Part shown: in pieces, positions 37,188 to 57,773 of the stretch
How positions within the stretch are numbered: position 1 is the first letter of the stretch
How the letters are laid out: every line of letters starts with the position of its first letter
From: an uncultured delta proteobacterium
Lineage (GTDB): Bacteria > Desulfobacterota > Binatia > UBA9968
DNA length: 64,000 nt
Direction of reading: 5' to 3'
Assembly: GCA_963816145.1 (NCBI GenBank)
Contig: CAWFJP010000014.1
Location: forward strand, 160,001-224,000
Made by a program: the position numbers and the translations under genes
The notes under the pieces: generated by a model
What the model was told of the DNA's origin: nothing
The model's input: the letters and a program-made list of their open reading frames with translations, nothing else
Databases searched by the model: none

Positions 37188-37955
37188 ATGGGCAAGCTCA
37201 GACATATCGCCTTTATTTCCAACGAACCGAAAGTGCAAAGCGATTTTTACCAAAAGTATTTCGGTTTCGAGGAATGCAAGGTCTTTCCCAGCGGCTCGCG
37301 CATGGTGATCGACCCGTTGTTCAATCTCGCCTTCTTGCAGCAGGCGGCCGTGTCGGTGGCGGTTTCCGGGACGCATCGAGCCGATGGCAGCGAGACCGAG
37401 TTGACGGTGGGAATACATCACTACGGTTTCCTGGTGGACAATTTGGAGCAAGCGGTCGCCAAATTGCCGGCGGGCGTAACCCGCGGTGCCAACCCGCAGA
37501 TCTCCGCCGGCGTCTCTGGCCCCGAAGCGGCGCGGCCAGCCGAAGTGCGTTTCATCGACCCCTGGGGCAACAACGTCGATCTGTCGTCGCGCGGTTATTT
37601 GGGGCGAGAAGAAAAGAAACTTCCCGCCGTGCGTCTACTCGCTGTGCAGGTGCCCGATTTGGCCGCGGCGTGCGAGTTTTACCAGCAACAGTTCGGTCTC
37701 GAGATCGCCGGCTGGACCGATGACGGGACAATTCGCTTGAGCGACGGCACGCTGACGCTGATGTTGACCAAGTCACAAGTGCGTCCAAAGGGTGGCGTGC
37801 AGTATTTTGGCATTCAGGTGAGCGATATTACCGGTCTCAAGAAGCGCTTACAGGACGGCGGTGTGGCAGTTTCGGATAACACCAATGGGCAGATTCAGTT
37901 TAACGATCCGGAAGGGAATCGGGTTGTGGTATCGGAAACTGGGTGGGCGAATTGA
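37188..37955 (+). CDS. VOC/glyoxalase family protein (two domains)
   Basis: LRHIA..FY..FG, HHYGF, DPWGN and DPEGN. Confidence 0.85.
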   Translation: MGKLRHIAFISNEPKVQSDFYQKYFGFEECKVFPSGSRMVIDPLFNLAFLQQAAVSVAVSGTHRADGSETELTVGIHHYGFLVDNLEQAVAKLPAGVTRGANPQISAGVSGPEAARPAEVRFIDPWGNNVDLSSRGYLGREEKKLPAVRLLAVQVPDLAAACEFYQQQFGLEIAGWTDDGTIRLSDGTLTLMLTKSQVRPKGGVQYFGIQVSDITGLKKRLQDGGVAVSDNTNGQIQFNDPEGNRVVVSETGWAN

Positions 37956-38161: not shown

Positions 38162-40075
38162 TCAGGTTTTTGCGCCAAGTGCCCGCGCGATATAATCGCG
38201 CCGAACCTTGGTGCGCGGAACTTTGCCGGTAAACCAGCTCCGCACATCGGCGTCGAGGCCGATGCCGTGCATGTAGTTGTACAACGCCTTGTTCAGGGCT
38301 GTGCCGAGGGCGTCGTGGTCGACGCCGATGGGGTCGAGGAAGCCGACGTCGTTTTTGGCGAACGAGATCTCCGGCAAAGGGACGAGCGTGACGCCGTATT
38401 GTTCGGGATGCTTGCCCACCGGTGAATGCACCGTGCAGGCAAAGCGGTGGAAGAAGCCTGACTGGATGCAGCCGGCTATGAACAATTGCCGGACATATTC
38501 GAGGGCATCAACCGTGTCTTGCACGGTTTGGGTCGGGAAGCCGTACATCAAATAGGCGTGGACGAGAATGCCGGCGTCGGAAAATGCGCGCGTGACTCTG
38601 GCGACTTGCTCGACGCTGACGCCCTTCTTCATTAAATTGAGCAGGCGGTCGGAGGCGACCTCGAGCCCGCCGGATACCGCGATGCAGCCGCTGTCGACGA
38701 GTTCTTGGCAGAGCTGCGGCGTGAAAGATTTCTCGAAGCGAATGTTGCCCCACCATGAAATGGCCAGCTTGCGTTTCTTGATCTCGGCGGCGAGTGCTTT
38801 CAAGGTTTTTGGCGGTGCGGCCTCGTCGACGAAATGAAATCCGGTCTGTTGGGTTTCGGCGATGACGGTCTCGATGCGGTCGGCCAGGGTTGCGGCGGCG
38901 AGGTCGTCGTAGCGCGAGATGTAGTCGAGGGTGACGTCGCAGAAACTGCACTTTTTCCAGTAGCAGCCGTGGGCGACGGTGAGTTTGTTCCAGCGGCCGT
39001 CGGACCACAGCCGATGCATCGGGTTGAGCATGTCCAGTAGCGACAAGTAGCCGTCGAGCGGCAGTCCGTCCCAAGTCGGCGTGCCTACTTCCGCGAATGG
39101 AATGTCGGGCTCGCGTGCGTCGATGTAGCGGATTGTGGATTTATCGGCAGTGCGCCGGAAGGTGCGAACCAAATTGCTTTCGGGCCGGTTGCCGCCCAGA
39201 TATTCTAATAACGCCAACAGCGGCCGCTCGCCGTCATCCAAGGTGACATAGTCGAAATAATCGAACACCCGCGGCTCGCTCAGTTCGCGCAGCTCGGTGT
39301 TGACATAGCCGCCGCCGAGCGCGGTGATTATCGATGAATCGCGGGCTTTGATCGCCTGGGCGATGCGAAACGCGGCGTACACCGAGCCTGGGAACGGCAC
39401 CGAGAGCAGCACCAGATTCGGCGCATGGCGCGCCAGCGCCGCCAGCGTTAGGTCACGCAGTGTGCTGTCGACCAGATTGAGCGGCGCGGCCAGCGCTTCG
39501 GCGAGGGGATCGAAGGTCGGTTGGCTTTGCGCTAGAGACTCGGCATAGCGGACGAACTCAAAGCGCGGGTCGACGGCCTCGCGCAACACGTCGGCGAGAT
39601 CATCGAGGTAAAGAGTCGCCAAGTGTTTAGCGCGGTCTTCTATCCCAAGCGCTCCGAACGCCCAAGCCAGTGGATCGTCGGTGCCGCCTTGCAGATAAAA
39701 ATCTATTGGCTTGAAGCGCGGCCCTTCGGGAAGGAATTGCCGTCCACAAATGCGATGCGCCAGGGTCGGATCACGCCCCTGCAGGAACGCGATGGCGGGG
39801 GTGATCGTCGAGAGATAACGGTCGAATTTCTGGAGAAATGCTTTGGCGATCGGCGAACGCTTGCGCTGCGGGATCGCCTCGGCACGGTCCCGGATGGCTA
39901 ACAGCCCGTCAGTGGAAAAAAGCTTTAAGACTAGAGCCAATGCAAGATCTTCCTGCACAGCATCGAAACCCCGCGAGCGCAAGAAGCCGGTGAGATATGC
40001 CGTTGACGGATATGGCGTATTTAGCTGAGTCATCGGTGGGATTAGCGACAGCACGCGAATAGAATTGGTCGACAT
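38162..40075 (-). CDS. B12-binding-domain radical SAM protein
   Basis: CYWKKCSFC (CxxxCxxC), N-terminal PP.TQLNTPYP and GGGY.NTELR. Confidence 0.9.
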   Translation of the reverse strand: MSTNSIRVLSLIPPMTQLNTPYPSTAYLTGFLRSRGFDAVQEDLALALVLKLFSTDGLLAIRDRAEAIPQRKRSPIAKAFLQKFDRYLSTITPAIAFLQGRDPTLAHRICGRQFLPEGPRFKPIDFYLQGGTDDPLAWAFGALGIEDRAKHLATLYLDDLADVLREAVDPRFEFVRYAESLAQSQPTFDPLAEALAAPLNLVDSTLRDLTLAALARHAPNLVLLSVPFPGSVYAAFRIAQAIKARDSSIITALGGGYVNTELRELSEPRVFDYFDYVTLDDGERPLLALLEYLGGNRPESNLVRTFRRTADKSTIRYIDAREPDIPFAEVGTPTWDGLPLDGYLSLLDMLNPMHRLWSDGRWNKLTVAHGCYWKKCSFCDVTLDYISRYDDLAAATLADRIETVIAETQQTGFHFVDEAAPPKTLKALAAEIKKRKLAISWWGNIRFEKSFTPQLCQELVDSGCIAVSGGLEVASDRLLNLMKKGVSVEQVARVTRAFSDAGILVHAYLMYGFPTQTVQDTVDALEYVRQLFIAGCIQSGFFHRFACTVHSPVGKHPEQYGVTLVPLPEISFAKNDVGFLDPIGVDHDALGTALNKALYNYMHGIGLDADVRSWFTGKVPRTKVRRDYIARALGAKT

Positions 40076-40415: not shown

Positions 40416-40790
40416 ATGCGCGTGCTCAAAATCAACGATCTTAAGGAAACCCCGATGGACACGGCAACGCCGATCGCCGGCTGGACCGGCGGGGCGGTGA
40501 GCCGGACGCGGCAGGCGGTCATCGGCGATGGGCAGTCGGACAACTTCCGCTGTAACGTGGTCAACTTTCGCGTCGGCGCCACCACCGGCTGGCATGTCCA
40601 TGACTGCGATCAGATTCTCGTGGTCACGGCCGGCAAAGGCTTCGCCGCGACGGAGAGTGAACAGCGCGAGATCACCGTCGGCGATATCGTGCATATTAAA
40701 TCTGGCGAGCGCCACTGGCACGGCGCTTCGGCGGATTCGCCGCTGTCGCATATCACGGTGACGACGGTGGGCAGCACTTCGAAGCATTAG
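40416..40790 (+). CDS. Cupin domain protein
   Basis: WHVHDCDQ and GERHWHGA; AAGGAGG RBS. Confidence 0.88.
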   Translation: MRVLKINDLKETPMDTATPIAGWTGGAVSRTRQAVIGDGQSDNFRCNVVNFRVGATTGWHVHDCDQILVVTAGKGFAATESEQREITVGDIVHIKSGERHWHGASADSPLSHITVTTVGSTSKH

Positions 40791-40850
40791 CCGGTCGGTT
40801 ATGATTTTGGGCGAAGGTTTGGTATCGGGACCGTTCCAAGGAGGATTTTC

Positions 40851-41741
40851 ATGGAAATTATCCGCGGCAACTTGAGCGATATCAAAGGCATCCCGCCGAG
40901 CGGTTTATGCGTCGGTGTGCACCGCGCCGGCGCGGTGCATAAGAAGATGGTCGCCAAGCATGGCGACGGTCTGGCGGTCTGGTCGCTTAGGCCCGATCTC
41001 GATTTCATCGCGTTCAAAAAGGAAGGCCTTGGTGAACAGGGGATTCGCTCGACCAACGACATGGCATCGATCGACGGCAATGAAAAACTGATTTATGGCG
41101 TGCGCGGCGCGCCGCCCGAGGTGCGCGAAACGGCGCGCGAGAAAGGTCTGACGCTGCTCGCCGACGCGACCTGTCCCTTTGTTTTACAGCAGGAAGAGGC
41201 CGAGATCGAGCTACTCAACGACGGGCGCCACTTGGTGTTACTCAGTAGTCCTACCCATCACGGCGTGCCGAGGATTCAAGGCATCGCGCGGACCAAGGGT
41301 AAAGAAGTCTTTATCGTCGAGCATGAGGACCAGGTCGACTCGATCCATCTGACTCGATTCGAACCCATCGGCGTGATCGTGCAGACGACTTTCTGGGTGG
41401 AAACCTACAAGAAAATCGTCGCCCGTTTACTGGAGCATTTCGCCAACGTGCAAATTCGCAACACTTCCTGCATCGACTCGCTGCAGCGCCTTCCCGAAGT
41501 CGAGAAGCTCGCCAAGCAAGTCGAAGCGATCGTTATTTTTGGCTGGACCGAAGGGATGACCACCCGGATGCTCGAAGTGGCGCGCGCTTTCAATCCGAAT
41601 GTTTACAAAATCGAGAAGGTGGACGATCTCCGGCTCGACTGGCTGCGCGGCAAGGAAACGGTCGGTATCATCGGTGCCAACGAGACACCCGAATGGATGA
41701 TGAACGATGCCATCGAGCGTATGAAGAGCATGGTGGCCTGA
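40851..41741 (+). CDS. Divergent IspH/LytB-fold [4Fe-4S] protein
   Basis: Three cluster Cys in IspH contexts (GLCVGV.RA, DATCPFV, NTSC) and QTT; VHN, AHG, HPE and SSN substrate motifs are absent. Confidence 0.85.
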   Translation: MEIIRGNLSDIKGIPPSGLCVGVHRAGAVHKKMVAKHGDGLAVWSLRPDLDFIAFKKEGLGEQGIRSTNDMASIDGNEKLIYGVRGAPPEVRETAREKGLTLLADATCPFVLQQEEAEIELLNDGRHLVLLSSPTHHGVPRIQGIARTKGKEVFIVEHEDQVDSIHLTRFEPIGVIVQTTFWVETYKKIVARLLEHFANVQIRNTSCIDSLQRLPEVEKLAKQVEAIVIFGWTEGMTTRMLEVARAFNPNVYKIEKVDDLRLDWLRGKETVGIIGANETPEWMMNDAIERMKSMVA

Positions 41742-41744
41742 ACC

Positions 41745-42026
41745 GTGCCGAAGATCACTTTCATTCCAGCGGAAAAATCGTTCGATGTCGCGCCAGGCAC
41801 GACCATCCTGGTTGCCGCAGTGCAAAACGGATTGCACCTGCGCCATGATTGCACCGAAGCGGTTTGCGGCACCGACCGGGTGAAGATCCTTTCCGGTGCG
41901 GAGCAGCTGAGTGCAATAACCGACAACGAGGAATTGACCCTCGAGATGATGAACGCGGGGCCCAACGAAAGGCTGGCTTGCGTCGCACGGATCGCCGGCG
42001 ATGTGATTGTCGAAATGCCCGAATAA
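41745..42026 (+). CDS. 2Fe-2S ferredoxin with CxxxxCxxD...C motif
   Basis: G.TIL.AA, HDCTEAVCGTD and RLAC. Confidence 0.85.
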   Translation: MPKITFIPAEKSFDVAPGTTILVAAVQNGLHLRHDCTEAVCGTDRVKILSGAEQLSAITDNEELTLEMMNAGPNERLACVARIAGDVIVEMPE

Positions 42027-42045
42027 GCGACTCTAAGGAGAATTA

Positions 42046-43152
42046 ATGCCGGCACCTGTGGCAATTCTAGCAAAACCGGACGATCACCGCGGCATTCTCA
42101 CCATGGCAGAAGCGGTCGACGCGATGCTCGATGCATTTCGCAATTGGGCGAATGACCCGCTGGTGGCGGAGCTGCGGCGACGCACGCACACGCCGAAGAA
42201 CGTGCGCATTACCCTACATCAGGGCGCGGCACCGGCTTATGGCACGACGGGCATCATGACCCATGCGGAGCTTGTGCGCATTTTCGGCGACAAACAAAAA
42301 TATCCGCGCCGCGGCCGCCCGGTTCTGGTGCTTTATGACAGCGACACGGCGGCTTTGAAGCTCATTCTCGTCGGCGAAATGCATCCCAAGGAGCTGCCGG
42401 ACGCCAACAGCGTGGTGGCGATGCCGACGGCCTGTGCCTCGATGGTCGGCACCGATTTGCTCGCGCGCAAAGACTGCCGGGTCGCCGGGGTTTTCGGTGC
42501 TGGAGATCAAGCGAAGATGCATCTCCTGGCGCTCACCTGTATTCGCAAGTCGATTGACAAGGCGCGCGTCTTCAGTCCGACCCGCGAGACTCGCGAAAAC
42601 TTTGCCGCGGAAATGAGCGCCGTATTGGGCATCGCAGTGACCGCCGCGGAGAGCGCTGCAGATGTTGTCGACGGCGCCGACGTAATCCTGTGCGCGACCA
42701 ATTCAAATGTTCCGGTATTCGACGGCAATTGGCTGGTTCCCGGCCAACATGTCACCTCGATCGTTTCGAGCAATATCGGATTGAAAAAGCGCGGCCACGT
42801 CATTGAAATGCGCCGCGAGATCGACGAGAGGACTCTGGAGCGGGCCGATATTTTGCTGACCAACGTTTGGGGACAGGAAGAGCTGGACAAGACCGCGGTG
42901 TTCTGGGAAGCCTCTCTCGATCGCCCAAACATCGCGGGCAAGATTGTCGATAGCGGAGAGCTCATCCGCGGTGAAAAAAGCGGACGAACCGACGCTGCTC
43001 AAATTACCTATTTCAAAAACTGCGCGTTTTGGGGTATTGGCGCGGCGGCCATCGGCGGACTGATCTATGACAAACTCTTGCAGCAGCGCAAGGGTTTGGC
43101 GCTCGACTTCAACCCGCATGAGTTCTATGACGATACTTGGGCGGAGGATTAG
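42046..43152 (+). CDS. Ornithine cyclodeaminase/mu-crystallin family protein
   Basis: FGAGDQA Rossmann motif, ADVILCATNS, GQHVTSI, REID and ITYFK. Confidence 0.88.
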   Translation: MPAPVAILAKPDDHRGILTMAEAVDAMLDAFRNWANDPLVAELRRRTHTPKNVRITLHQGAAPAYGTTGIMTHAELVRIFGDKQKYPRRGRPVLVLYDSDTAALKLILVGEMHPKELPDANSVVAMPTACASMVGTDLLARKDCRVAGVFGAGDQAKMHLLALTCIRKSIDKARVFSPTRETRENFAAEMSAVLGIAVTAAESAADVVDGADVILCATNSNVPVFDGNWLVPGQHVTSIVSSNIGLKKRGHVIEMRREIDERTLERADILLTNVWGQEELDKTAVFWEASLDRPNIAGKIVDSGELIRGEKSGRTDAAQITYFKNCAFWGIGAAAIGGLIYDKLLQQRKGLALDFNPHEFYDDTWAED

Positions 43153-43218
43153 ATTTGTTTGAATGAGCGGGAAGCCTGGGTTACAGCGCGAAGATGATCG
43201 CAAGGAGGATTGGATAGC

Positions 43219-44124
43219 ATGCGCGGTATAACACCGAGACGAGAACAGGGCATGGCCGATCCGGTGTTGGCCGAGATGGTTCATGCCACCGGGGCGACGG
43301 AGTCGCGTCACTACGCGGCGGTGAAGCCGATCATTCAAGCCTATCGCGCCAGTTGGGTGAAGTTGGCGCCGTTTCGCGACGGGCCGGTCAACCCCCAGCG
43401 CGTGCCGGTCGACGATCCGGCGGCGATGACGGCGCAGATCAAGGCGAAGGCGAGCGAGTGGGGCGCCAACTTGGTCGGCGTCTGCCGCCTGCAGCCGCAT
43501 ATGATCGATCTCGGCTCGGAAGTGTCCCACGAGTTTGTCATCGCCTGCTGCGTCGCCGAAGACTACGAAAAGGTGCTTCAAGGCCCGGACGCCGTCGAGG
43601 AAGAGGCGATGCGGACGTACGCGAAGTGCACCGAGATATCCACTGCGTTAGCTGCCTACGTCCGTGAGATGGGATATCCCGCCATCGCGCACCACAACGG
43701 CGCCAGCGAGGTGCAGGCGATCCCAATTTTCTACCAAGTCGGATTCGGCGAGCTCGGCCGGCATGGCAGTCTGATCAATGAAAAGTATGGCGCGAGCTTT
43801 CGCCCTGGTTTCGTCACCACCGATTTGCCGCTCGTCGAAGACCAGCCGCGAGAGTTCGGCGTTCAGGACTTCTGCATGAACTGCAACGTTTGCCAGCGCA
43901 ACTGCCCGGGCGACGCGATCCCGCAAGACCATGTCATGACCCATGGCATCAAGCGCTGGCTGATCGATTTGGAGAAGTGCTATCCGTATTCCCGCCTGCG
44001 CGAGGAGTATTGCCATCTCTGCGTCGACGTCTGCCCGTACAACGTGAAGTCGCATCCGGACACGTACAAAGCGCTTATGAAAGAGCGTAAACAGGTTGGC
44101 TATAAGACACCAAAGACTTATTGA
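43219..44124 (+). CDS. Reductive-dehalogenase/QueG-like 2x[4Fe-4S] protein (probably cobalamin-binding, no TAT signal)
   Basis: GANLVG, GFGELGRHG, VTTDLPL, FCMNCNVCQRNCP and C..CHLCVDVCP. ATG 43219 follows AAGGAGG. Confidence 0.85.
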   Translation: MRGITPRREQGMADPVLAEMVHATGATESRHYAAVKPIIQAYRASWVKLAPFRDGPVNPQRVPVDDPAAMTAQIKAKASEWGANLVGVCRLQPHMIDLGSEVSHEFVIACCVAEDYEKVLQGPDAVEEEAMRTYAKCTEISTALAAYVREMGYPAIAHHNGASEVQAIPIFYQVGFGELGRHGSLINEKYGASFRPGFVTTDLPLVEDQPREFGVQDFCMNCNVCQRNCPGDAIPQDHVMTHGIKRWLIDLEKCYPYSRLREEYCHLCVDVCPYNVKSHPDTYKALMKERKQVGYKTPKTY

Positions 44125-44203
44125 AGCGAGTTTGCACTAAGAGATCTCGGAAAAGAATATTTTCCCGCAAAGGCGCAAAGGCGCTAAGTTCGGAAAGGTT
44201 GGG

Positions 44204-44401
44204 ATGGAAAAGCTTTACGTCAATGCCATCGGACCCGACGGTGATGTCAGCACTGTCGGTTTGTTTTACTCGCAACCTGAAGCGCAAAAAACTGTTGACA
44301 TGCTGGGAACCAATCCCGAGCGAGTCGGTTATCGCTACGAAATCGTCGAAGCGGTGCGGCATGTGCTTTCAGAAAAAAATCCGCCAACCAGCAAGGAGTA
44401 G
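44204..44401 (+). CDS. Small hypothetical protein (65 aa)
   Basis: ATG start; stop lies 2 nt before the next ATG, and the ORF contains that gene's AAGGAG RBS. Confidence 0.5.
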   Translation: MEKLYVNAIGPDGDVSTVGLFYSQPEAQKTVDMLGTNPERVGYRYEIVEAVRHVLSEKNPPTSKE

Positions 44402-44403
44402 CC

Positions 44404-44955
44404 ATGCCCTATATCAAGACGATTCCGCCCACAGAGGCGACCGGAAAACTGAAGGAAGTCTATGAAACGGCGGGCGGCCCTTCGGCGGCGCGCGGCAAGG
44501 TCGCGATGGTGCGCCAGGTGCAAAGCCTCAATGCCGACGCGCTCGCCGCCTGGAGCGATCTTGGCGCAGCGATCATGCACGGCCCGTCGCGCCTGAGCAG
44601 GCGCCAGCGCGAGATGATCGCCACGGTGGTGTCGGCGACCAATCATTGCAGCTATTGAACGACTGCGCACGGAGAGGCTCTCCGTAGCGAAACCCACGAC
44701 GATCCGTTCGTCAAAGCGATTAAACAGGATTACACCAAGATTGATTTAACGGCAGCGGAGCGGGCCATGCTCGATTACGCGGTGAAACTGACGGTGACGC
44801 CGTCGAGCGTAACGGCAGAAGATGTTTTGATATTGCGCGCTCATGGGTTCGACGACCGCGATATACTCGACATCATCTACGTTGTTTGTTTGTACAATTT
44901 TAACGACCGGCTGGCCGACGCGACCGGCATCAAAGGGCATGATTTTCTTAGTTGA
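44404..44955 (+). CDS. AhpD/carboxymuconolactone-decarboxylase-like peroxidase selenoprotein (CxxU), 183 aa
   Basis: REMIATVVS..NHCSY-TGA(44656-44658)-TTAHGEAL continues in frame into ORF 44767-44955 (AMLDYA.KLT..P...NRLAD-like C-terminus). Confidence 0.9.
44666..44689 (+). promoter_or_regulatory. Bacterial SECIS-like hairpin
   Basis: CGC-ACGGAGA-[GGC]-TCTCCGT-A-GCG; G-initiated loop starts 17 nt after the UGA. Confidence 0.8.
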
Positions 44956-44994
44956 CATCGTCCGCCGCCGGGTGTGACGCACAGGTTGGCCATT

Positions 44995-45876
44995 ATGCCG
45001 TTCAGCTACGCCGAGTTCATGACTCAACTGATGGCGCCCAAGCCCTATCCAGCGCAGGCGGTTTTTACCGCGCCCCGGATAACGGCACTGCGCAAGCCGG
45101 TTGCAGAATGCACCCTCGGTGTCTTTACCAGCTGTGGCGCACAGCTGAAGGACGACCGACCGCTGGCCGAGACCAACGATCTTTCCTACCGGCTGCTGCA
45201 CCGTGACGTAGCGCTCTCGGAGCTGAAGATCAATCACATGACGCCGTCGCGCAAGTGGGCGCTGGAGGACTTGAACGTCGCTTATCCGCGCGACCGGCTG
45301 ATCGAGTTGGAGGCGGAGGGGGTTTTCAAGAAGCTTGCGCCCAGCGCCGTTTCCATGGTCGGTTCGATCACGTTGTACACGGAGCTTTTGAGCGATGCCG
45401 TGCCGCGGATCAAGCAAGAATTCGACCGGCAGGAAGTCGACCTGGTGCTGATCGTGCCGTTTTGACCGCAATGCCATCGGTCCGTGGGACTGATCGCAAG
45501 AGGACTGGAAGCGAGAGGTTTGCCGACCGTGAGCCTGAGCACCGTATGGGACATCACTCTGGCGGTAAAACCGCCGCGGCCATGCTTCCTGGATTTCCCG
45601 ATCGGCTGTCCGGTCGGCAAGCCGGGCATGCCGGAATTGCAGCGGCAAATACTGAAAGCGGTCTTCTCCCAGGCGGAGAAATTTACCGGTGATTGGGCGC
45701 TGCATGAGCTGCCCTTCCAGTGGGCAAAGGATGGCAGCCGTCATTGGGAGGAAGAGCTCAAGGATCTCTACCGGCGAGGCCTCGGCACGGTGGAGGCGCA
45801 TGTTGCGGATCATCGCCGTCGCGGTGAGGCGCTGATCGGTCAAGAGGAAGCGTTTGCGCTGCGCTGCAATTGCTAG
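44995..45876 (+). CDS. Glycine/sarcosine/betaine/D-proline reductase selenoprotein B (GrdB/PrdB)-like protein (UxxC), ~293 aa
   Basis: VDLVLIVPF-TGA(45463-45465)-PQCHRSVGLIARGLEARGLPTV joins ORFs 44974-45465 and 45484-45876 in one frame; also D.N..YP.DRL.ELE.EG and PPR..F..FP.G.P.G. Confidence 0.92.
45472..45498 (+). promoter_or_regulatory. Bacterial SECIS-like hairpin
   Basis: TGC-C-ATCGGTCC-[GTG]-GGACTGAT-C-GCA; GU loop starts 18 nt after the UGA. Confidence 0.8.
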
Positions 45877-45933
45877 CGTCCTGTCCACCCACTGACCGCC
45901 AGCCAATGAACGTATGAAAAGGAAGGTGCTGCG

Positions 45934-46719
45934 ATGATCGAACTCTATCACAACGACATGTCGGTGTGCGCGCAAAAGGTGCGTTTTACCCTGGCCGAGA
46001 AGAAACTTGCTTGGGACAGCCACCATATGAATCTGCGCGCCGGCGATCAGCAAAAGCCGGAATATTTGAAACTCAATCCCAACGCCCTGGTGCCTACCCT
46101 GGTCGACGATGGCACCGTTATTATCGAATCCACCGTGATCAACGAATATCTCGATGACGCGTATCCCGACCTGCCGCTGCGTCCGGCGGCCGCGACCGCG
46201 CGGGCGCGCATGCGTCTATGGACCAAACAGTTGGATGAAGGCGTTCACGCCGCGACCAGCGTGGTCAGCTCGGCGATCGCCTTTCGCTATCAAAAGCTCG
46301 CCATCGGCATGGAAGCGCTCGAAGAATTTCACAGGAAGATGCCCGACCCGGTGAAGCGCGAGAAGAGCTGGGAGAATGTCACCAAGGGCGTCGAGTCGCG
46401 CTTTTTCCCCGAGGCGGTCATGCGCTTCGACAAATTGCTTGGCGACATGGAGTCGGCCTTGAAAGACTCTCCGTGGCTCGCCGGCAAAGAGTTCTCGCTG
46501 GCCGATATCGGCTACGCGCCCTATGTTACCCGGCTCGATCACCTGCAACTGCAATTTCTCTGGGACAAGCGGCCGCACATTCCAGAATGGTACGATCGGC
46601 TGCGCGAACGGCGCGCGTATGGTGAGGCGCTGGAAAACTGGTTCAATCCCGCCTATTTGCCGCTGATGAAGGAAAAAGGATCGGAAGCGCGAGCCCGGGT
46701 CAAAGAGATCGTCGGCTAA
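45934..46719 (+). CDS. Glutathione S-transferase family protein (N-terminal SVC motif)
   Basis: LYH..MSVCAQKVR, LNP...VPTL, ES..I.EYLD and FSLADI. Confidence 0.9.
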   Translation: MIELYHNDMSVCAQKVRFTLAEKKLAWDSHHMNLRAGDQQKPEYLKLNPNALVPTLVDDGTVIIESTVINEYLDDAYPDLPLRPAAATARARMRLWTKQLDEGVHAATSVVSSAIAFRYQKLAIGMEALEEFHRKMPDPVKREKSWENVTKGVESRFFPEAVMRFDKLLGDMESALKDSPWLAGKEFSLADIGYAPYVTRLDHLQLQFLWDKRPHIPEWYDRLRERRAYGEALENWFNPAYLPLMKEKGSEARARVKEIVG

Positions 46720-47806: not shown

Positions 47807-47866
47807 GTCTAACGTTTTCGGTGAGAGGCGCGAATTTCAGCGTCCTTCTCGACCCAATGGTTAGGT
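47807..47866 (-). mobile_element. attC site (60 bp)
   Basis: Minus strand ACCTAAC (contains the toxin TAA)...GTTAGAC; inner stem with unpaired G and T on the opposite strand. Confidence 0.9.
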
Positions 47867-48199
47867 TCCGATAATCTCGTTCAATCCTTCAACAACCTGA
47901 GCCAATTCCTCTGGAGACGCCCGACCCATCACCTTTCCAATCCGTTCGACCGCGAGTGTTCGGATCTGGCTGATTTTCACCCACGACTTTTTCGGTAGCC
48001 CCCGTACATGAAGTTCGAGTGTTAAGGGGAACCCAGCGCGTTGAGGTTGACTCGTGAGCGCAACAGCAATCACCGTTCCGGAACGTTCATTGAAAACGTC
48101 CTGGCTTAGAATCAAAACCGGACGTAATCCGGCCTGTTCACGTCCCCGTACCGGATTCAAGTCGGCCCAGCGGATTTCACCCCTCAGTATTCGGGCCAT
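47861..48199 (-). CDS. mazF: Type II toxin, PemK/MazF family endoribonuclease
   Basis: RGEI.WADL.P..G.EQ.G.RP.LILS and QIRT..ER motifs. Confidence 0.93.
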
Positions 48200-48426
48200 T
48201 CCGCTAGATCCTCGGACAGCCCTTCTTCTGCAAGCGCCTTCTCAAAGGTAGGATCGAGCTTGGCGCACTCTTGGGCTAGACGACTTTTCTCAAGCCGCGC
48301 GAGTTTCTCCGCAACAGCTTCCTCGATGGCCTGACTACGGTTGGGAAAGACTTGTTTCTTAACCAGTTGATCGAGACGAGCGAGGGTAGATTCATCTAAA
48401 GAAATTGCAACCTTGGATCTTGCCAT
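48184..48426 (-). CDS. Ribbon-helix-helix (CopG) antitoxin
   Basis: KVAISLD...LD.LV....NRS.AI and an acidic tail; overlaps the toxin start. Confidence 0.88.
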
Positions 48427-48637: not shown

Positions 48638-49594
48638 TCAGCGCTTTGCCCCATTGGCGACCTTCATCTCGGCGTCCACTTCGTCCTCGAATGCGCGACG
48701 CTTCGACGCAACAAACTGCCGGTAGCCCTCGGGGTCCATCCACGCGTTGACGCCCTCGTTCACGGCGCGCTTGCGCTTCGCCTCCATGCCGAAGTACTCG
48801 GTGTGGTGTGCAAGCCAGATGTCCGGCTTGAGCATCTCCCAGGTATGGAGCGTCCGCCGGTAGTCGTCCTCGACGCCGGGGTACGAGGGATCTCGTGCCG
48901 CGACCCGGTAACCCGGATTGAACCCGCCGCCGTCTGGAAACACGACGGCGTAGGCCTTGCCAGTCTCGAAGAGTGTTGTGGTCCACGTCGTCGCACCGCG
49001 TGTATGGCCGGGCGTATGGAGAGCCGTGAGCAGCACGTCACCGAGCCGGACCTGGACGCCATCGCGGAGCACACGGTCGACCTTCACGGGCGGCTGGCCC
49101 ATGACCTGCCAGTCCTTGCCGTAGTGAAAGTCGCTCTTGCCTCCGTCCTCAACCATCGCGACGTCTTCCTGCATGATCGCGACCTGCGCGCCTGACAACT
49201 GCTTCAGGTAGGCGAACGCGCCCGCGTGGTCGGAATGGCCATGGCCATTGATAATGATCTTGATGTCTTCAGGCGTGAAGCCGAGCTTGCGAATCGACCC
49301 GACGATCATCGGGCCGGATTTCGGCGTGCCTGTATTCAGCAGGATGTGGCCCTCGCGTGTCGCGAACAGCCACGAGCTCAACCCCTGTGTACCGACGAAG
49401 TACAGTGGTCCGACGATATGGATCGGCTCCGCAGGTTCGTCCCACTTCAGGTATTTCGTGGCGAGTTCGATGAACAGCTTGTTGTCGTTCGCGAGCTGTT
49501 CCTTCGTCGGGGCGTTCGGCGGCAGCTCCTGCGCACCGGCCGAGAGCACTAGCGAGGCTGCGAGCGAAACGGCAATGAACCAACGCTTCTTCAT
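48638..49594 (-). CDS. Subclass B3 metallo-beta-lactamase, cassette gene
   Basis: Signal peptide, P..IVG.LYFVGT, HGHSDH, TPGHTRG.TTW and WLAHH. ATG 49594 follows GAGGGAG. Confidence 0.88.
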   Translation of the reverse strand: MKKRWFIAVSLAASLVLSAGAQELPPNAPTKEQLANDNKLFIELATKYLKWDEPAEPIHIVGPLYFVGTQGLSSWLFATREGHILLNTGTPKSGPMIVGSIRKLGFTPEDIKIIINGHGHSDHAGAFAYLKQLSGAQVAIMQEDVAMVEDGGKSDFHYGKDWQVMGQPPVKVDRVLRDGVQVRLGDVLLTALHTPGHTRGATTWTTTLFETGKAYAVVFPDGGGFNPGYRVAARDPSYPGVEDDYRRTLHTWEMLKPDIWLAHHTEYFGMEAKRKRAVNEGVNAWMDPEGYRQFVASKRRAFEDEVDAEMKVANGAKR

Positions 49595-49667
49595 GGCGAT
49601 GCTCTCCCTCGGCAGCAATCACTGCACCACCGGTTTCGAGGACGACTGCAATGCGGCGTCCAATGCC

Positions 49668-54314: not shown

Positions 54315-55458
54315 ATGAAATTTTCCTTATTCATGATGCCGCTGCACCATCCGACGGAGAGTCCGTCGCTGGCGTTCGACCGCGACATTTCGCTGATCCA
54401 TCTCGCCGACGAACTCGGTTACGACGAGTGTTTCATCGGCGAGCACCACTCCGGCGGCTGGGAGACCATGCCGGCACCGGAGATGGCGTTGGCGAAGGCT
54501 TCGGCTTTGGCGCACCGGATTCGTCTCGGCACGTCGGTGATCAGTGTGCCGTTTCATCATCCTTACTATGTCGCCGAGCGCATGGCGTTTCTCGACCACT
54601 TGACGCGCGGGCGGGCGATCCTCGGTGTCGGGCCCTGTGCTTTGGTGACGGACAAAGTGCTTTTCGGTCTGCCCACTGAAAAACTCTATCCGATGATGGC
54701 GGAGTCGGTGGATATTATTGTCCGCCTGCTGGAATCGACCGAGCCGATCGACTACGACGGCCAGTTTTGGAAGTTCAAACAAATGCGTTTGCAGCTGCGC
54801 TCGTACCAGCAGCCGCGCCTGCCGATGGCGATCGCTTCATCGGGTAATCCCATTAGCCTCGAACTCGCCGGCAAATACGGCATGCTGTTCTTATCGCCGG
54901 CCGGGAAGAATGTCAGAAACAACCAGACCAAAGCCGAGCAGTGGAACAAGGTCGAAGCGATCGCCGCCCAGCACGGCACGGCGACGAGCCGCGACAACTG
55001 GCGCATTGCCACTTGCGTTTATCTCGCCGACAGCAAAGAAGAGGCGTGGCGGGACGTCGAGGCGAGCATCGGTCGCGACATGGAATATTTCGCTGCCATC
55101 GGTTTGAAAGCGCCCTACGAATCCTACCCTGGGCAACCGTTCAGCGAAATCACTCCCCGTTCTGGCGCCGACCGGCGCGACTGGATCATCGGCACGCCGG
55201 ACGATGCCATCCAAGCAGATCGAACGGATGCAGCTGGAGACCGGCGGCTTTGGCGGCTTGTTATTCTCGACCCATGAATGGACCGGCACCGAGAAGATCC
55301 GCCGCTCTTATGAATTATTCGCGCGCTACGTCATGCCGCACTTCCGCGGCCACACCGCCGGCTATCACGACGAATGGCGGCGCATTCAACACGCCAATGC
55401 TAACGGCGGATTCAAATTGGAAGACTTCGGTGCGCGCAGCAATCTGGCGGCGAAATGA
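54315..55458 (+). pseudogene. LLM-class (luciferase-like) flavin monooxygenase with one frameshift at ~55211
   Basis: GEHHSGG and RI.LGT motifs; IGTPDDAI continues as KQIERMQ..GGFGGLL if one extra C is removed. Confidence 0.85.
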
Positions 55459-55491
55459 AATGGAATTCTGTGTTTGCGGGCACGATGATCA

Positions 55492-55571
55492 CACCCCGAA
55501 GGTCACGAAGGACACGAAGGGTTCGGATATCTAAAACTCCGAACTTCGTGCTCTTCGTGTCCTTCGTGGTG
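55492..55571. repeat. REP-like CACGAAG palindrome (inverted copy of 22369-22448)
   Basis: Direct sequence comparison. Confidence 0.9.
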
Positions 55572-55615
55572 AGAAAAAACAAGCTCGTTGGATATGCTAC
55601 TGATTAAGGATCGAT

Positions 55616-56329
55616 ATGACCATTGCGACAGGCGTTCATGATTGGGAACAAGCGATCGGCGCGCGTGTGCACGCCACGATGGCGTCGTCGGAAATGGAAC
55701 GTTACTTCGCGGTCAAGATGACGCCGGCACGTGCGCGGGTGGCGCTATTGCAGCTAAGTCTGTTCGTCAGTTGCCGGCGCGATGGCTGGGCCAATTTGAT
55801 CGCCAACTGCGACGCGCCGGCGATGCGCCAGCGCTTGATGACGCACGAGTATGACGAACTAGTCGAAGACGAGTATAGCTCGAAAGGGCACTACGATTTG
55901 CTGATTCGCCAAGGGGCGTTGATCGGTCTCACGGCGGACGACTTCGCTCGGGTCGAGCCGCTGCGCACGAGCATGGCGACGTTTTACGGTTGGAAGTGGA
56001 TCACGCGCGCGGCACCTTGGCAGGATGGTCTGATCGCCATGATGGCCACCGAGTGGGTAAACGACGATCGTCGCCTGCTCGATCAAGGCGGCGGTCTTTC
56101 GCGCCGCGACGGACTGCGGTGGATCCGAGACTTCGGCTTCAAATGGGAGGAGATGCCCAACTTCGCCGCCCATGCTGTAGCCGACGAAAAGCATAGTGAT
56201 TTATTCGTGCCGTTGCTCGACAAATTCATCACGAATCCCGAGAGTGCGCTCAAGGCGGCGGACGATGCGCTGGAGCTATTCAAGTTGTATCACTTGGGCG
56301 TGGCGGAGGAGATGGAGCGATTGGATTAA
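55616..56329 (+). CDS. Heme-oxygenase-like diiron protein (PqqC/TenA/CADD family)
   Basis: HEYDEL..D....GH, TE and NFAAHAVADEKH. Confidence 0.8.
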   Translation: MTIATGVHDWEQAIGARVHATMASSEMERYFAVKMTPARARVALLQLSLFVSCRRDGWANLIANCDAPAMRQRLMTHEYDELVEDEYSSKGHYDLLIRQGALIGLTADDFARVEPLRTSMATFYGWKWITRAAPWQDGLIAMMATEWVNDDRRLLDQGGGLSRRDGLRWIRDFGFKWEEMPNFAAHAVADEKHSDLFVPLLDKFITNPESALKAADDALELFKLYHLGVAEEMERLD

Positions 56330-56537
56330 AAGATTTAACCACAAAGGGCACAAAGTTCACAAATTTAGAATGTTTCGGAATCGGACATTGGCCGCAAAGG
56401 CCGCAAAAAACGCATAGAATATGCGCAGCAATCTGCGCCGTTGGAATAGGACATTAACCGCAAAAAGCGCAAAGGGCGCAAAAGAGAATTCTGACGCGCG
56501 AGTCGACGCGTCCGTCTTCCGTTGAACGTTTGAACCC

Positions 56538-57773
56538 TTGAACCTTGAATTTTTGAACTCTCGTCTCCACCGCTCGTTTCCCCGCGTCCCCCTCGCCGTG
56601 CCGTTCTGGAGCGGCGAGACCTATCGCAATATTCTGCGCTGTATCGTTACCGGCGAAATTATCGTCGGTCCCGACCTTGTAGAGTTAAAGAGTCAACTTC
56701 TCGCACACTTCGGCGTTCCCGATCTAGTTCTTTGTGGGTCGGGCAGCTTGGCGCTTGAGCTCGCCCTGCGTGTGTGCGACTTGCGCGCCGGCGATGAAGT
56801 GATCATTCCTACACTGTGTTGTAGTGCCGTGGTGGCACCGATCTTAGCGCTGGGCGCGACACCGGTGTTGGCCGATGCCGGCAGCGAACTCAATGTTACT
56901 GTTGAAACCGTCGACGCTGTGCGCACGCGCAAGACCCGGGCGGTTATCGTACCCCATTTGTTCGGCAATCCAGCGGACATTGGACTAATCGCAGAGCTCG
57001 GTAACGCGAATAACATAGTTGTCATCGACGATGCCGCACAGGCTCTTGGGGCGACGATCGACGATCAACCGGTGGGGAGCTGCGGCGACATGGGCGTCAT
57101 CAGCTTCGGCGCCGAGAAAATCTGTTTTGGCCTTGGTGGCGGAGTCTTGGTTGCCCACAGCGGCGGCGTGCTCGACGCGGCTCGACAATTTGTTCTTGGC
57201 TACCCGAGCGTCGGTCACACGCTCGCGAGAATGACTTCGACGCTAATTCGACGCCGCTGGCGCCGTTGGACTTTGCCGTTTCAACGCTTGCACGCTTTCG
57301 GACATGAAAGAAGCCCCGAAGCGCTGCCTGAGCAGTATCGACAGGAAAGTATGGCGAACCTAAACGCCGCGGTGACGCGCAGTCTCGTCGCTTCGTTGCC
57401 GAAGAATCTCCAAGCGCGCCGCGCCCGGGTTCAGGCTTACCGGGAACTACTGGGAAACCACGCGGGTGTCGAGTTAATTGGCCATCGGCCGGGATCGGCT
57501 TGTCTGACCCAGGTCCTGCGCGTATTGTCGAAGCGCAGCGGTGACGATGCGGCAGCACGGATCATTGGCGCCCTCGGCCAAGCCGGCTACGAGGTGCAAG
57601 GAAGCTACCTGCCGATTCACTTGCTAGCGCAATTTCCCCAGTGTGTTTGGGATACCTTGCCTTATGCCGAACGGGTATGGGCCGATCTGGTCGAGTTGCC
57701 TTGCGAGCCCAGCGTGAGCATGGCCGATGTGGAAAGCATCGCCGCCCTCGTCAAGCGAGTCTTGACGGCTTAG
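56538..57773 (+). CDS. DegT/DnrJ/EryC1/StrS PLP-dependent aminotransferase family protein (start uncertain)
   Basis: SGS.AL.LAL, GDEVI.P, HLFG.P, DDAAQA.G and SFGAEK. Confidence 0.85.
   Translation: MNLEFLNSRLHRSFPRVPLAVPFWSGETYRNILRCIVTGEIIVGPDLVELKSQLLAHFGVPDLVLCGSGSLALELALRVCDLRAGDEVIIPTLCCSAVVAPILALGATPVLADAGSELNVTVETVDAVRTRKTRAVIVPHLFGNPADIGLIAELGNANNIVVIDDAAQALGATIDDQPVGSCGDMGVISFGAEKICFGLGGGVLVAHSGGVLDAARQFVLGYPSVGHTLARMTSTLIRRRWRRWTLPFQRLHAFGHERSPEALPEQYRQESMANLNAAVTRSLVASLPKNLQARRARVQAYRELLGNHAGVELIGHRPGSACLTQVLRVLSKRSGDDAAARIIGALGQAGYEVQGSYLPIHLLAQFPQCVWDTLPYAERVWADLVELPCEPSVSMADVESIAALVKRVLTA

Follow-up and report, generated by a model that had tools for sequence, protein, structure and literature searches.

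Layout of the array

The window analysed here is a stretch of 64,000 nucleotides (contig CAWFJP010000014.1, positions 160,001 to 224,000 of the forward strand) from the genome of an uncultured delta proteobacterium, a soil organism belonging to the little-studied Binatia (GTDB lineage Binatia; UBA9968; GenBank assembly GCA_963816145.1). Between positions 40416 and 46719, its + strand carries nine co-oriented genes, separated by gaps of 2-79 nt and accompanied by ribosome-binding sites, and it is this array of putative redox enzymes that concerns us here (Table 1). A first-pass annotation, made from the bare sequence, had placed the nine genes at this position, which proved correct, and the family labels assigned there agreed with Pfam and NCBIfam matches. 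The nearest chains to the cupin at the head of the array in the Protein Data Bank (PDB) were 4bif and 4uxa (E ~1e-13). The source genome, G000, measures 7.8 Mb, with 99.5% completeness and 6.7% contamination. Close homologues are labelled Candidatus Binatia or Binatota in their sources. Our tallies of orthologues, co-occurrence, alignments, gene order and trees include two unpublished genomes (G005 and G035), and no conclusion hinges on either of them.

Table 1. Positions of the array genes and of associated features in the window
Feature	Position	Strand	Basis or remark
Cupin_2 protein, 124 aa, heads array	40416..40790	+	PF07883, 37.7 bits; also first gene in relatives
IspH variant (IspH/LytB-fold [4Fe-4S] paralogue, rebuilt pocket)	40851..41741	+	PF02401
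[2Fe-2S] ferredoxin, Asp at third ligand position	41745..42026	+	Fer2
OCD/mu-crystallin-family reductase	42046..43152	+	PF02423, 113 bits
Minimal cytoplasmic reductive-dehalogenase-family enzyme (Rdh), 301 aa	43219..44124	+	TIGR02486
Intergenic repeat of the CGCAAAGGCGCAAAG type, dispersed in the genome; optional in the rdh-orf65 gap	44160..44195	.	Genome copy counts
Orf65, 65-aa soluble protein, no family match	44204..44401	+	Predicted small Rdh subunit
AhpD-like selenoprotein	44404..44955	+	TIGR01926; Sec codon 44656-44658
SECIS hairpin of AhpD-like gene, GGC loop	44666..44689	+	Forms in orthologues; codon constraint
PrdB-like selenoprotein, short, stand-alone, 293 aa	44995..45876	+	U157xxC160; Sec codon 45463-45465
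SECIS hairpin of PrdB-like gene, GTG loop	45476..45494	+	Pairing retained; two-sided changes
Glutathione S-transferase (GST), N-terminal S10-V11-C12	45934..46719	+	Family match; SVC in 15/15
VOC/glyoxalase gene, often upstream of array	37188..37955	+	Profile match; relatives
Luciferase-like monooxygenase gene, in two reading frames	54315..55455	+	Follows GST in relatives

Conservation and modular composition

The array is a conserved neighbourhood and not the random juxtaposition that would have refuted the first-pass annotation. Among 106 loci examined, which are partly redundant and include 80 metagenome loci chosen via their IspH-like gene, 58 hold at least three array genes, and the order of these genes is the same in 55 of them. 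In its full form, the array consists of the cupin, three AhpD-like genes (two with a CxxU motif), the IspH-like, ferredoxin, OCD-like and RDase-like genes, orf65, a further AhpD-like gene, one slot gene, GST and the luciferase-like gene; locus L174 is nearly complete. The array is confined to one genus of Binatia, in which its content varies freely and many subsets occur. Up to four AhpD-like CxxU paralogues are found per array, and genes for a substrate-binding protein and for VOC, OCD-like and luciferase-like proteins recur in the array of relatives. The slot between AhpD and GST was inspected in 29 loci with an AhpD or GST orthologue: it holds an OsmC-like selenoprotein (NF041052, 151 bits) in ten, the PrdB-like protein in four, neither in 15 and never both.

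The genes for the IspH variant and Rdh are separable between genomes. In 31 genomes of the genus, several of which are incomplete, both were found in seven, only the IspH variant in five, only Rdh in six and neither in 13. Linkage within modules, on the other hand, is nearly perfect: the ferredoxin accompanies the IspH variant in 37 of 38 genomes and Orf65 accompanies Rdh in 35 of 35 genomes, also where the genes concerned are unlinked, as in family f3 and genome G041. Because of this combination, we consider a modular architecture highly probable, with the IspH variant and its ferredoxin in one module (A), Rdh and Orf65 in another (B), and the selenoproteins and GST in a third (C).

The first-pass annotation had further suggested that an intergenic repeat between rdh and orf65 may split the cluster into two transcripts. 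This idea was not sustained. The element is a dispersed genomic repeat: its 15-mer recurs 40 times exactly and 140 times with one mismatch, whereas five shuffled 15-mers gave 0-5 copies. Moreover, the rdh-orf65 gap measures 8-19 nt, without the repeat, in ten of the 19 relative loci compared. A scan for promoters and terminators stayed at chance level (1 found where 2.6 were expected; 6 where 7.9 were expected) and yielded no promoter-like site on the + strand.

Two almost certain selenoproteins

The AhpD-like and PrdB-like genes each contain an in-frame TGA codon, and reading through it gives the motifs C82-S-Y-U85 and U157-P-Q-C160, respectively. Both codons almost certainly encode selenocysteine (Sec), since the decoding machinery is present in the genome, the TGA codons are conserved, homologues carry Cys instead, and the selenocysteine insertion sequence (SECIS) hairpins behave as elements under selection. 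Specifically, selA (616 bits), selB (417 bits) and selD (380 bits) all scored above their cut-offs and lie in one cluster, and tRNA-Sec (selC) was found as well, so that all four components looked for are accounted for; selD itself carries one TGA. The TGA of the AhpD-like gene is kept in 25 of 25 aligned orthologue sequences, with Cys at this position in PDB homologues. That of the PrdB-like gene is kept in all nine close orthologues obtained from a search of 60 relatives; among homologues of at least 40% identity, 13 have TGA and 22 have Cys, the actinobacterial ones (46-51% identity) being of the latter kind.

The hairpin of the AhpD-like gene folds in 19 of 19 orthologues, and a single codon is used at four of the six invariant-residue codons inside it compared to one of 28 outside. 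For the PrdB-like gene, 95% of cells in the 8-pair stem are paired across 33 TGA genes versus 48% across 22 Cys genes, which are the fairer control because the stem was derived from the same, related sequences and shuffle counts are therefore not probabilities. Two-sided changes occur at four of the eight pairs in the 33 TGA genes. Taken alone, single-sequence SECIS z-scores are weak (-0.2 to -1.8). The two hidden selenoproteins of the first-pass annotation are thereby supported. The families themselves, known since 2005, are not new: AhpD-like (TIGR01926) CxxU and PrdB UxxC proteins have long been recognised as selenoproteins, as passages of PMC13188914, PMC2398784 and PMC1088965 indicate.

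An IspH variant with a rebuilt pocket and its own ferredoxin

The second gene of the array encodes a paralogue of IspH/LytB, the 4-hydroxy-3-methylbut-2-enyl diphosphate (HMBPP) reductase, and scores 130 bits against TIGR00216, which is below the cut-off of 188. Its structure model (pLDDT 88.6) displays the cloverleaf fold, with a TM score of ~0.8 to Escherichia coli IspH. Like that enzyme (TIGR00216; PDB 3DNF, 3KE8), the variant has the fold and the three cluster cysteines (C20, C108 and C207), and it also keeps H136 and Q178-T179-T180, the equivalents of H124, Q166, T167 and T168. Its diphosphate pocket, however, is rebuilt. Five of the eight pocket residues (H41, H74, H124, Q166, T168, S225, N227 and S269) are replaced and only H124, Q166 and T168 are kept: H74 has become R85, N227 has become M236 and S269 has become E278, an acidic stretch takes the place of H41, and S225 is replaced as well, the exact column of these two being alignment-dependent. 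In addition, E126 is replaced by G138, and W232 and E234 align with S222 and N224 of the E. coli enzyme. R85, G138, M236 and E278 show no variation among the 120 homologues compared. In passages of PMC8837944, where the eight pocket residues are listed, E126 mutants of IspH are described as nearly inactive.

The variant differs from IspH also in that it forms its own clade, is a second copy beside a canonical ispH (on contig C17), and comes with a ferredoxin of its own. In a quick tree, it branches together with four distant relatives marked by 'RG...HHG' (support 99), whereas E126, N227 and S269 are kept in 90 of the 90 other rows. To our knowledge, only one reaction of IspH has been described. 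The distant clade members are P0125, P0130, P0141 and P0143; P0125 is strongly acidic, as would befit a halophile. A plasmid search for distant relatives matched only ordinary ispH, and an ESM Atlas search with the variant returned only LytB clusters.

The adjoining ferredoxin has the ligands C36, C41, D44 and C79, and all 81 distinct sequences share D44. Of the 38 genomes that carry the IspH variant, 37 also gave the ferredoxin, as against none of the 23 that lack the variant, the 61 genomes being kin and not independent observations. The two genes adjoin each other in 74 of 80 metagenome loci; in family f3, they lie apart and both are still present. Judging from this distribution, we infer that the ferredoxin would be a dedicated electron donor of the IspH variant. 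The proposal that it feeds the B12 or Sec enzymes is not supported, because the ferredoxin tracks the IspH variant and six genomes of the genus have Rdh with neither of the two found.

The OCD-like gene follows the ferredoxin gene in 25 of 80 metagenome loci. It is an accessory, often a stub in relatives (as in L144-L147). In the encoded enzyme, which scored below the cut-off of every NCBIfam equivalog, Pro127 occupies the site of the family Arg ('RT(A/G)A' motif), a residue that binds the carboxylate; Pro was seen in 20 of 22 orthologue hits and Arg in 14 of 15 paralogue hits.

A minimal RdhA-like enzyme and its predicted partner

The start codon of rdh is more likely the ATG at 43219, which matches the starts of homologues. 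The best PDB match of the 301-residue protein is NpRdhA (4RAS, E 4e-55), and NpRdhA also came out on top in Foldseek, where a poor AlphaFold model (pLDDT 58) was used for the fold search only. A B12 core and two [4Fe-4S] motifs are recognisable, and Tyr134, Asn160, Arg195 and eight cysteines are invariant among the 34-35 sequences aligned. The site of NpRdhA Tyr426, which we take to be catalytic, is kept, and that of Lys488 is occupied by Arg, presumably as in PceA; K488 of NpRdhA was identified from the title of PDB entry 6ZY0. Rdh thus has in common with NpRdhA (4RAS, 6ZY1) and PceA (4UQU) the B12 core, the two cluster motifs, the Tyr426 equivalent and a basic residue at the Lys488 position, and it is, like NpRdhA, presumably cytoplasmic. 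However, NpRdhA has 704 residues, and its duplicated N-terminal and extra C-terminal domains are lacking in Rdh. Unlike the respiratory RdhAB systems, Rdh comes without RdhB and, on inspection by eye, without a consensus for twin-arginine translocation (TAT); instead, it has a constant 65-residue partner that is predicted to bind it. Neither Rdh nor Orf65 contains a hydrophobic segment (maximum KD19 values of 1.21 and 0.63, respectively). An assignment of Rdh as QueG was rejected: it scored 43 bits against TIGR00276 (cut-off 200), and the true QueG, with 399 bits, lies at C14:650k. CobS and btuB/F/C-like genes are present in the genome and CbiC was not found there, so that the organism looks like a B12 salvager by its gene content. 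Two more cytoplasmic RdhA-like genes were observed in the genome, at L261:5895-7091 and L262:5720-6955 (TIGR02486, 168 and 158 bits).

Besides the 35 genomes with an Rdh orthologue, one further genome gave a weak, partial match to Orf65, and the ESM Atlas search with Orf65 returned only unnamed Binatota clusters. Orf65 is predicted to be a small subunit of Rdh. A complex model of the two proteins scored 0.87, the best of three controls reaching 0.00, and two of three runs passed the mark, which was attained by 116 of 157 solved and two of 215 mismatched pairs, counts that are only rough for the alignments used here. At least 3% of contacts are common to the runs, and the partner pLDDT is at least 65. 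In the modelled interface, residues 15-23 of Orf65 meet residues 239-252 of Rdh, and these are largely invariant in both alignments. No solved complex of this kind was met in the structure searches made. On one metagenome contig (L169:3646-4017), orf65 is fused in frame to the AhpD-like gene by an apparent deletion.

The selenoproteins and GST of module C

With its TGA read through, the AhpD-like protein scores 143.6 bits against TIGR01926 (cut-off 81.8), and C82, U85 and H89 are invariant. In family, motif and SECIS type, it equals the AhpD-like CxxU selenoproteins known from the Sargasso Sea and Global Ocean Sampling (GOS) surveys, to judge from the relevant parts of PMC1088965, PMC2398784 and PMC13188914; the sole difference is the context, with up to four paralogues per array. 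In multi-selenoprotein operons such as SAO and Tso (PMC13188914), several selenoprotein genes also share one operon but belong to other families, and the operon section of that paper lists none in which AhpD-like or PrdB-like genes are combined with RdhA-like or IspH-like ones. For the GST, whose SVC motif is present in all 15 sequences, a suspected likeness to PcpC gained no support from a PDB search and was not used.

The PrdB-like protein (TGA read through) scored 115.6 bits against TIGR04483 (PrdB; cut-off 300) and 17.5 bits against PF07355 (cut-off 22). With its 293 residues it is shorter than the ~430-residue GrdB, and no solved structure matched at E<=1. It is homologous to clostridial PrdB along most of its length (27-31% identity) and has the same UxxC motif. 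It differs from PrdB and from the GrdB-family component B proteins, including FarB, in scoring below the cut-off, in that no PrdA was found in the genome, in having no proprotein neighbour, and in a C-terminal extension of ~40 residues; together with the actinobacterial Cys proteins it makes up its own subfamily. The best match to PrdA (TIGR04480) in this 99.5% complete genome has 27.6 bits against a cut-off of 700, and a GrdE-like gene was seen at none of 44 PrdB-like loci. For these reasons, and as the first-pass annotation had anticipated, the gene content indicates that the protein does not act as a clostridial proline reductase. The accompanying remark that PrdA/GrdE and GrdA/C/D are not in the window does not extend to the genome as missing partners, except for PrdA. 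On other contigs, there are nine PF09338 matches that represent eight GrdE-like genes (one in two pieces), six full-length selenoproteins of the GrdB type, all of them with a GrdE-like neighbour to themselves, and a single Sec-containing GrdA; a grdC-like gene in pieces is present as well. The GrdE/GrdB-like genes are spread over L254-L260 (contigs C8, C1, C4, C29, C31, C5 and C27). Two GrdE-like genes lack a GrdB partner, and the short PrdB-like genes also number two, so that the PrdB-like protein may pair in trans with one unpaired GrdE-like protein. Six of seven printed GrdE-like stretches show no Cys motif of the type that we take to form the pyruvoyl group, and the seventh is out of register. 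FarE/GrdI has been described likewise, without a pyruvoyl-type Cys motif, in sections of PMC10838667.

Within the array, the PrdB-like gene occurs in three distinct arrangements: in the window, in L060 with the near-identical L165, and in L168. In the tree, from which L168 was left out as too short, the copies of the window, L060 and L165 group on a separate branch (support 98). L060 lacks AhpD and L168 lacks Rdh. Eight of the nine close orthologues lie at loci without array orthologues, and five of these genes are flanked by a gene that we assume, from a motif, to encode an amidohydrolase-like protein and by a binding-protein gene. G000 possesses the usual PrdB-like locus (on C5) devoid of the PrdB-like gene, which fits a relocation of the latter. 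No array gene was found near the 22 actinobacterial Cys homologues, and clustering of the neighbours of actinobacterial PrdB-like genes revealed no common partner. Given the slot occupancy, the orthologues outside the array and the empty C5 locus, the PrdB-like protein is an accessory, probably relocated member of the array and not its core. A second short PrdB-like selenoprotein gene (L069:9010-9840; C4:264 kb in G000), 32% identical and with a compensated SECIS, has a wider distribution in the order than the window copy.

Surroundings of the array

In relatives the luciferase-like gene follows GST, whereas in the window it lies 7.6 kb downstream, behind an inserted block. This block contains a subclass B3 metallo-beta-lactamase-family gene (48638-49618, - strand; 299.5 bits, cut-off 240) and a MazF-like gene (47861-48426, - strand; E 8e-14) with a small upstream gene that, by eye, is antitoxin-like. 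The array resumes on the + strand at 54315-57773 with the luciferase-like gene, a 237-residue open reading frame without NCBIfam match and an aminotransferase-like gene, and the same trio is present in L125. On the other side, a B12-binding radical SAM gene (38162-40075, - strand) is divergent from the array; such a gene also adjoins it in L130, L137, L157, L164 and L166. Downstream of the array, a methyltransferase-like gene, which presumably resembles genes of arsenic metabolism, was seen in three genomes (L129:12169-14419, L131:3024-4253 and L132:3911-5122); L129, which is from an unpublished genome, has a radical SAM gene after it. G000 also shows expansions of paralogues, with 45 UbiD-domain (PF01977), 22 OCD-family and 19 GST matches.

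A proposed modular reductive toolbox

We propose that the array is a co-regulated, modular reductive toolbox against halogenated or otherwise electrophilic small molecules, and not one pathway; we regard this proposal as an even call, and the chances of a halogen or electrophile target as balanced in the same way. The halogen theme is suggested by the RdhA residues and by the family precedents FarB/FarE, Bmp8 and RcsA. In the parts of the literature consulted, a defluorination that needs no pyruvoyl group has been proposed for the GrdB-type FarB/FarE (PMC10838667), the AhpD-fold homologue Bmp8 is a debrominase (PMC5577590), and the AhpD-like RcsA degrades HOCl and is linked, together with a cupin, to reactive chlorine (PMC9751292). 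In module B, a C-halogen bond would be cleaved by Rdh with the help of salvaged cob(I)alamin, its two [4Fe-4S] clusters and a proton relay of Tyr and Arg, and Orf65 would bind Rdh as a small subunit, adding a strand to a hairpin beside the first cluster. In module A, the IspH variant would take electrons from the Asp-ligated [2Fe-2S] ferredoxin and remove the leaving group of a non-diphosphate substrate at its open iron. As the proton-donor Glu is lost, this leaving group may be one that does not need it, such as a halide, or His137 could serve as the acid. The OCD-like enzyme, without the family Arg, may reduce the resulting non-carboxylate imine. Module C would supply interchangeable Se/S nucleophiles (one to four AhpD-like selenoproteins, an OsmC-like or PrdB-like selenoprotein, and the Cys-GST), which could act on peroxides, hypohalites or alkyl halides by reduction or conjugation. 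A bolder version, which we deem unlikely, sees the operon as a three-chemistry reductive dehalogenation system, in which the IspH variant and its Asp-ferredoxin would represent a new class of Fe-S reductive lyase, descended from IspH, that cleaves C-halogen or N-O bonds without cobalamin. Rdh and Orf65 would be the smallest, two-subunit RdhA, and the AhpD-like and PrdB-like proteins would dehalogenate through their selenols in the manner of deiodinases, the PrdB-like one without a proprotein.

Several observations weigh against the toolbox. We infer its cofactors, its co-transcription, all its substrates and the halogen theme; RNA contigs from four runs, which matched in short pieces without bridging several genes, speak neither for nor against a common transcript. 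Rdh scored 119.2 bits against TIGR02486, under the cut-off of 160.35, and one of the three Rdh-Orf65 complex runs scored 0.00. Structures of peroxidase-related AhpD proteins match the AhpD-like protein far better (E 1e-39) than Bmp8 does (E 1e-5, a weak likeness), and the best solved relative of the GST is the etherase LigF (E 7e-21), which is not a dehalogenase. Lastly, families f2 and f3 retain the modules on their own, away from the array; the array may therefore be a late assembly in one genus.

Much of the same material could be read, with less probability, as an oxidative or reactive-chlorine stress operon. In this reading, the selenoproteins and GST would reduce peroxides or hypochlorite, and the task of the B12 and Fe-S enzymes would be to mend the cell's own metabolites after oxidation or chlorination, and not to break down compounds from outside. 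Thiol/selenol redox families account for the majority of genes in the full array, including up to four AhpD-like CxxU proteins and the OsmC-like one, RcsA and a cupin are tied to reactive chlorine, and interchangeable gene content suits a stress role. This leaves the recurring substrate-binding protein, VOC, OCD-like and luciferase-like genes unexplained, and IspH-type clusters are oxygen-sensitive according to PMC8837944. The stress operon overlaps with the toolbox, the main difference being where the substrate originates. We find it improbable that the modules service cofactors, with the IspH variant making or repairing the prenyl unit for the prenylated flavin mononucleotide of UbiD enzymes and Rdh processing cobalamin. 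The 45 PF01977 matches in the genome and the part of the phosphate pocket that is kept (the H124, Q166 and T168 equivalents) would fit, as would family f3, where the IspH variant is followed by UbiD and a TIGR00725 gene in the three loci read. But the link to UbiD is limited to f3, where the IspH variant seems to have moved: the f3 ferredoxin still lies behind the metallo-beta-lactamase-fold gene that precedes the variant and its ferredoxin in f2. In addition, ~43 UbiD genes make a chance neighbour likely, and the IspH variant was not found in 19 of the 31 genomes of the genus.

In the earlier view, the cluster forms a single linear pathway of reductive bond cleavage with the PrdB-like protein at its centre; electrons would come from the ferredoxin and the Fe-S/B12 proteins, and AhpD and GST would provide the recycling. 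The co-orientation of all genes, the three arrangements and the well-supported branch of array copies, and the 44 loci without a GrdE-like gene speak in its favour. It is nevertheless largely refuted by gene content, and we judge it highly improbable, because the presumed centre is present in four of 29 loci and replaced by the OsmC-like selenoprotein in ten, with eight of nine close orthologues elsewhere. L060 and L168 dispense with AhpD and Rdh, respectively, the empty C5 locus fits relocation, and the actinobacterial Cys homologues have no array neighbours. The variable content, the frequent stubs and the unrelated insert after GST in the window could mean that the genes share no function and that the locus is a landing site gathering selenoprotein and redox genes. 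This is very unlikely in view of the order shared by 55 of 58 loci and the short gaps with ribosome-binding sites, and the pattern is one of loss from a longer array rather than of random gain.

Significance

Searches of open-access literature aimed at this system turned up neither the array nor the IspH variant nor the small Rdh partner. In the main text of the Binatota genome paper (PMC8262859), selen, ispH, glycine reductase and cobalamin do not occur as terms, and its supplements may list these genes. While the array is limited to one genus and its substrates are presumed, the conserved clade of IspH variants, which databases label as ordinary IspH, offers a defined candidate for new Fe-S chemistry that can be expressed; its pocket is rebuilt and it has an atypical ferredoxin of its own. 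A soluble RdhA-type enzyme of 301 residues with a small partner would, if true, be a tractable minimal model. If Rdh is read correctly, it would suggest reductive dehalogenation in a lineage that is widespread in soil and freshwater.

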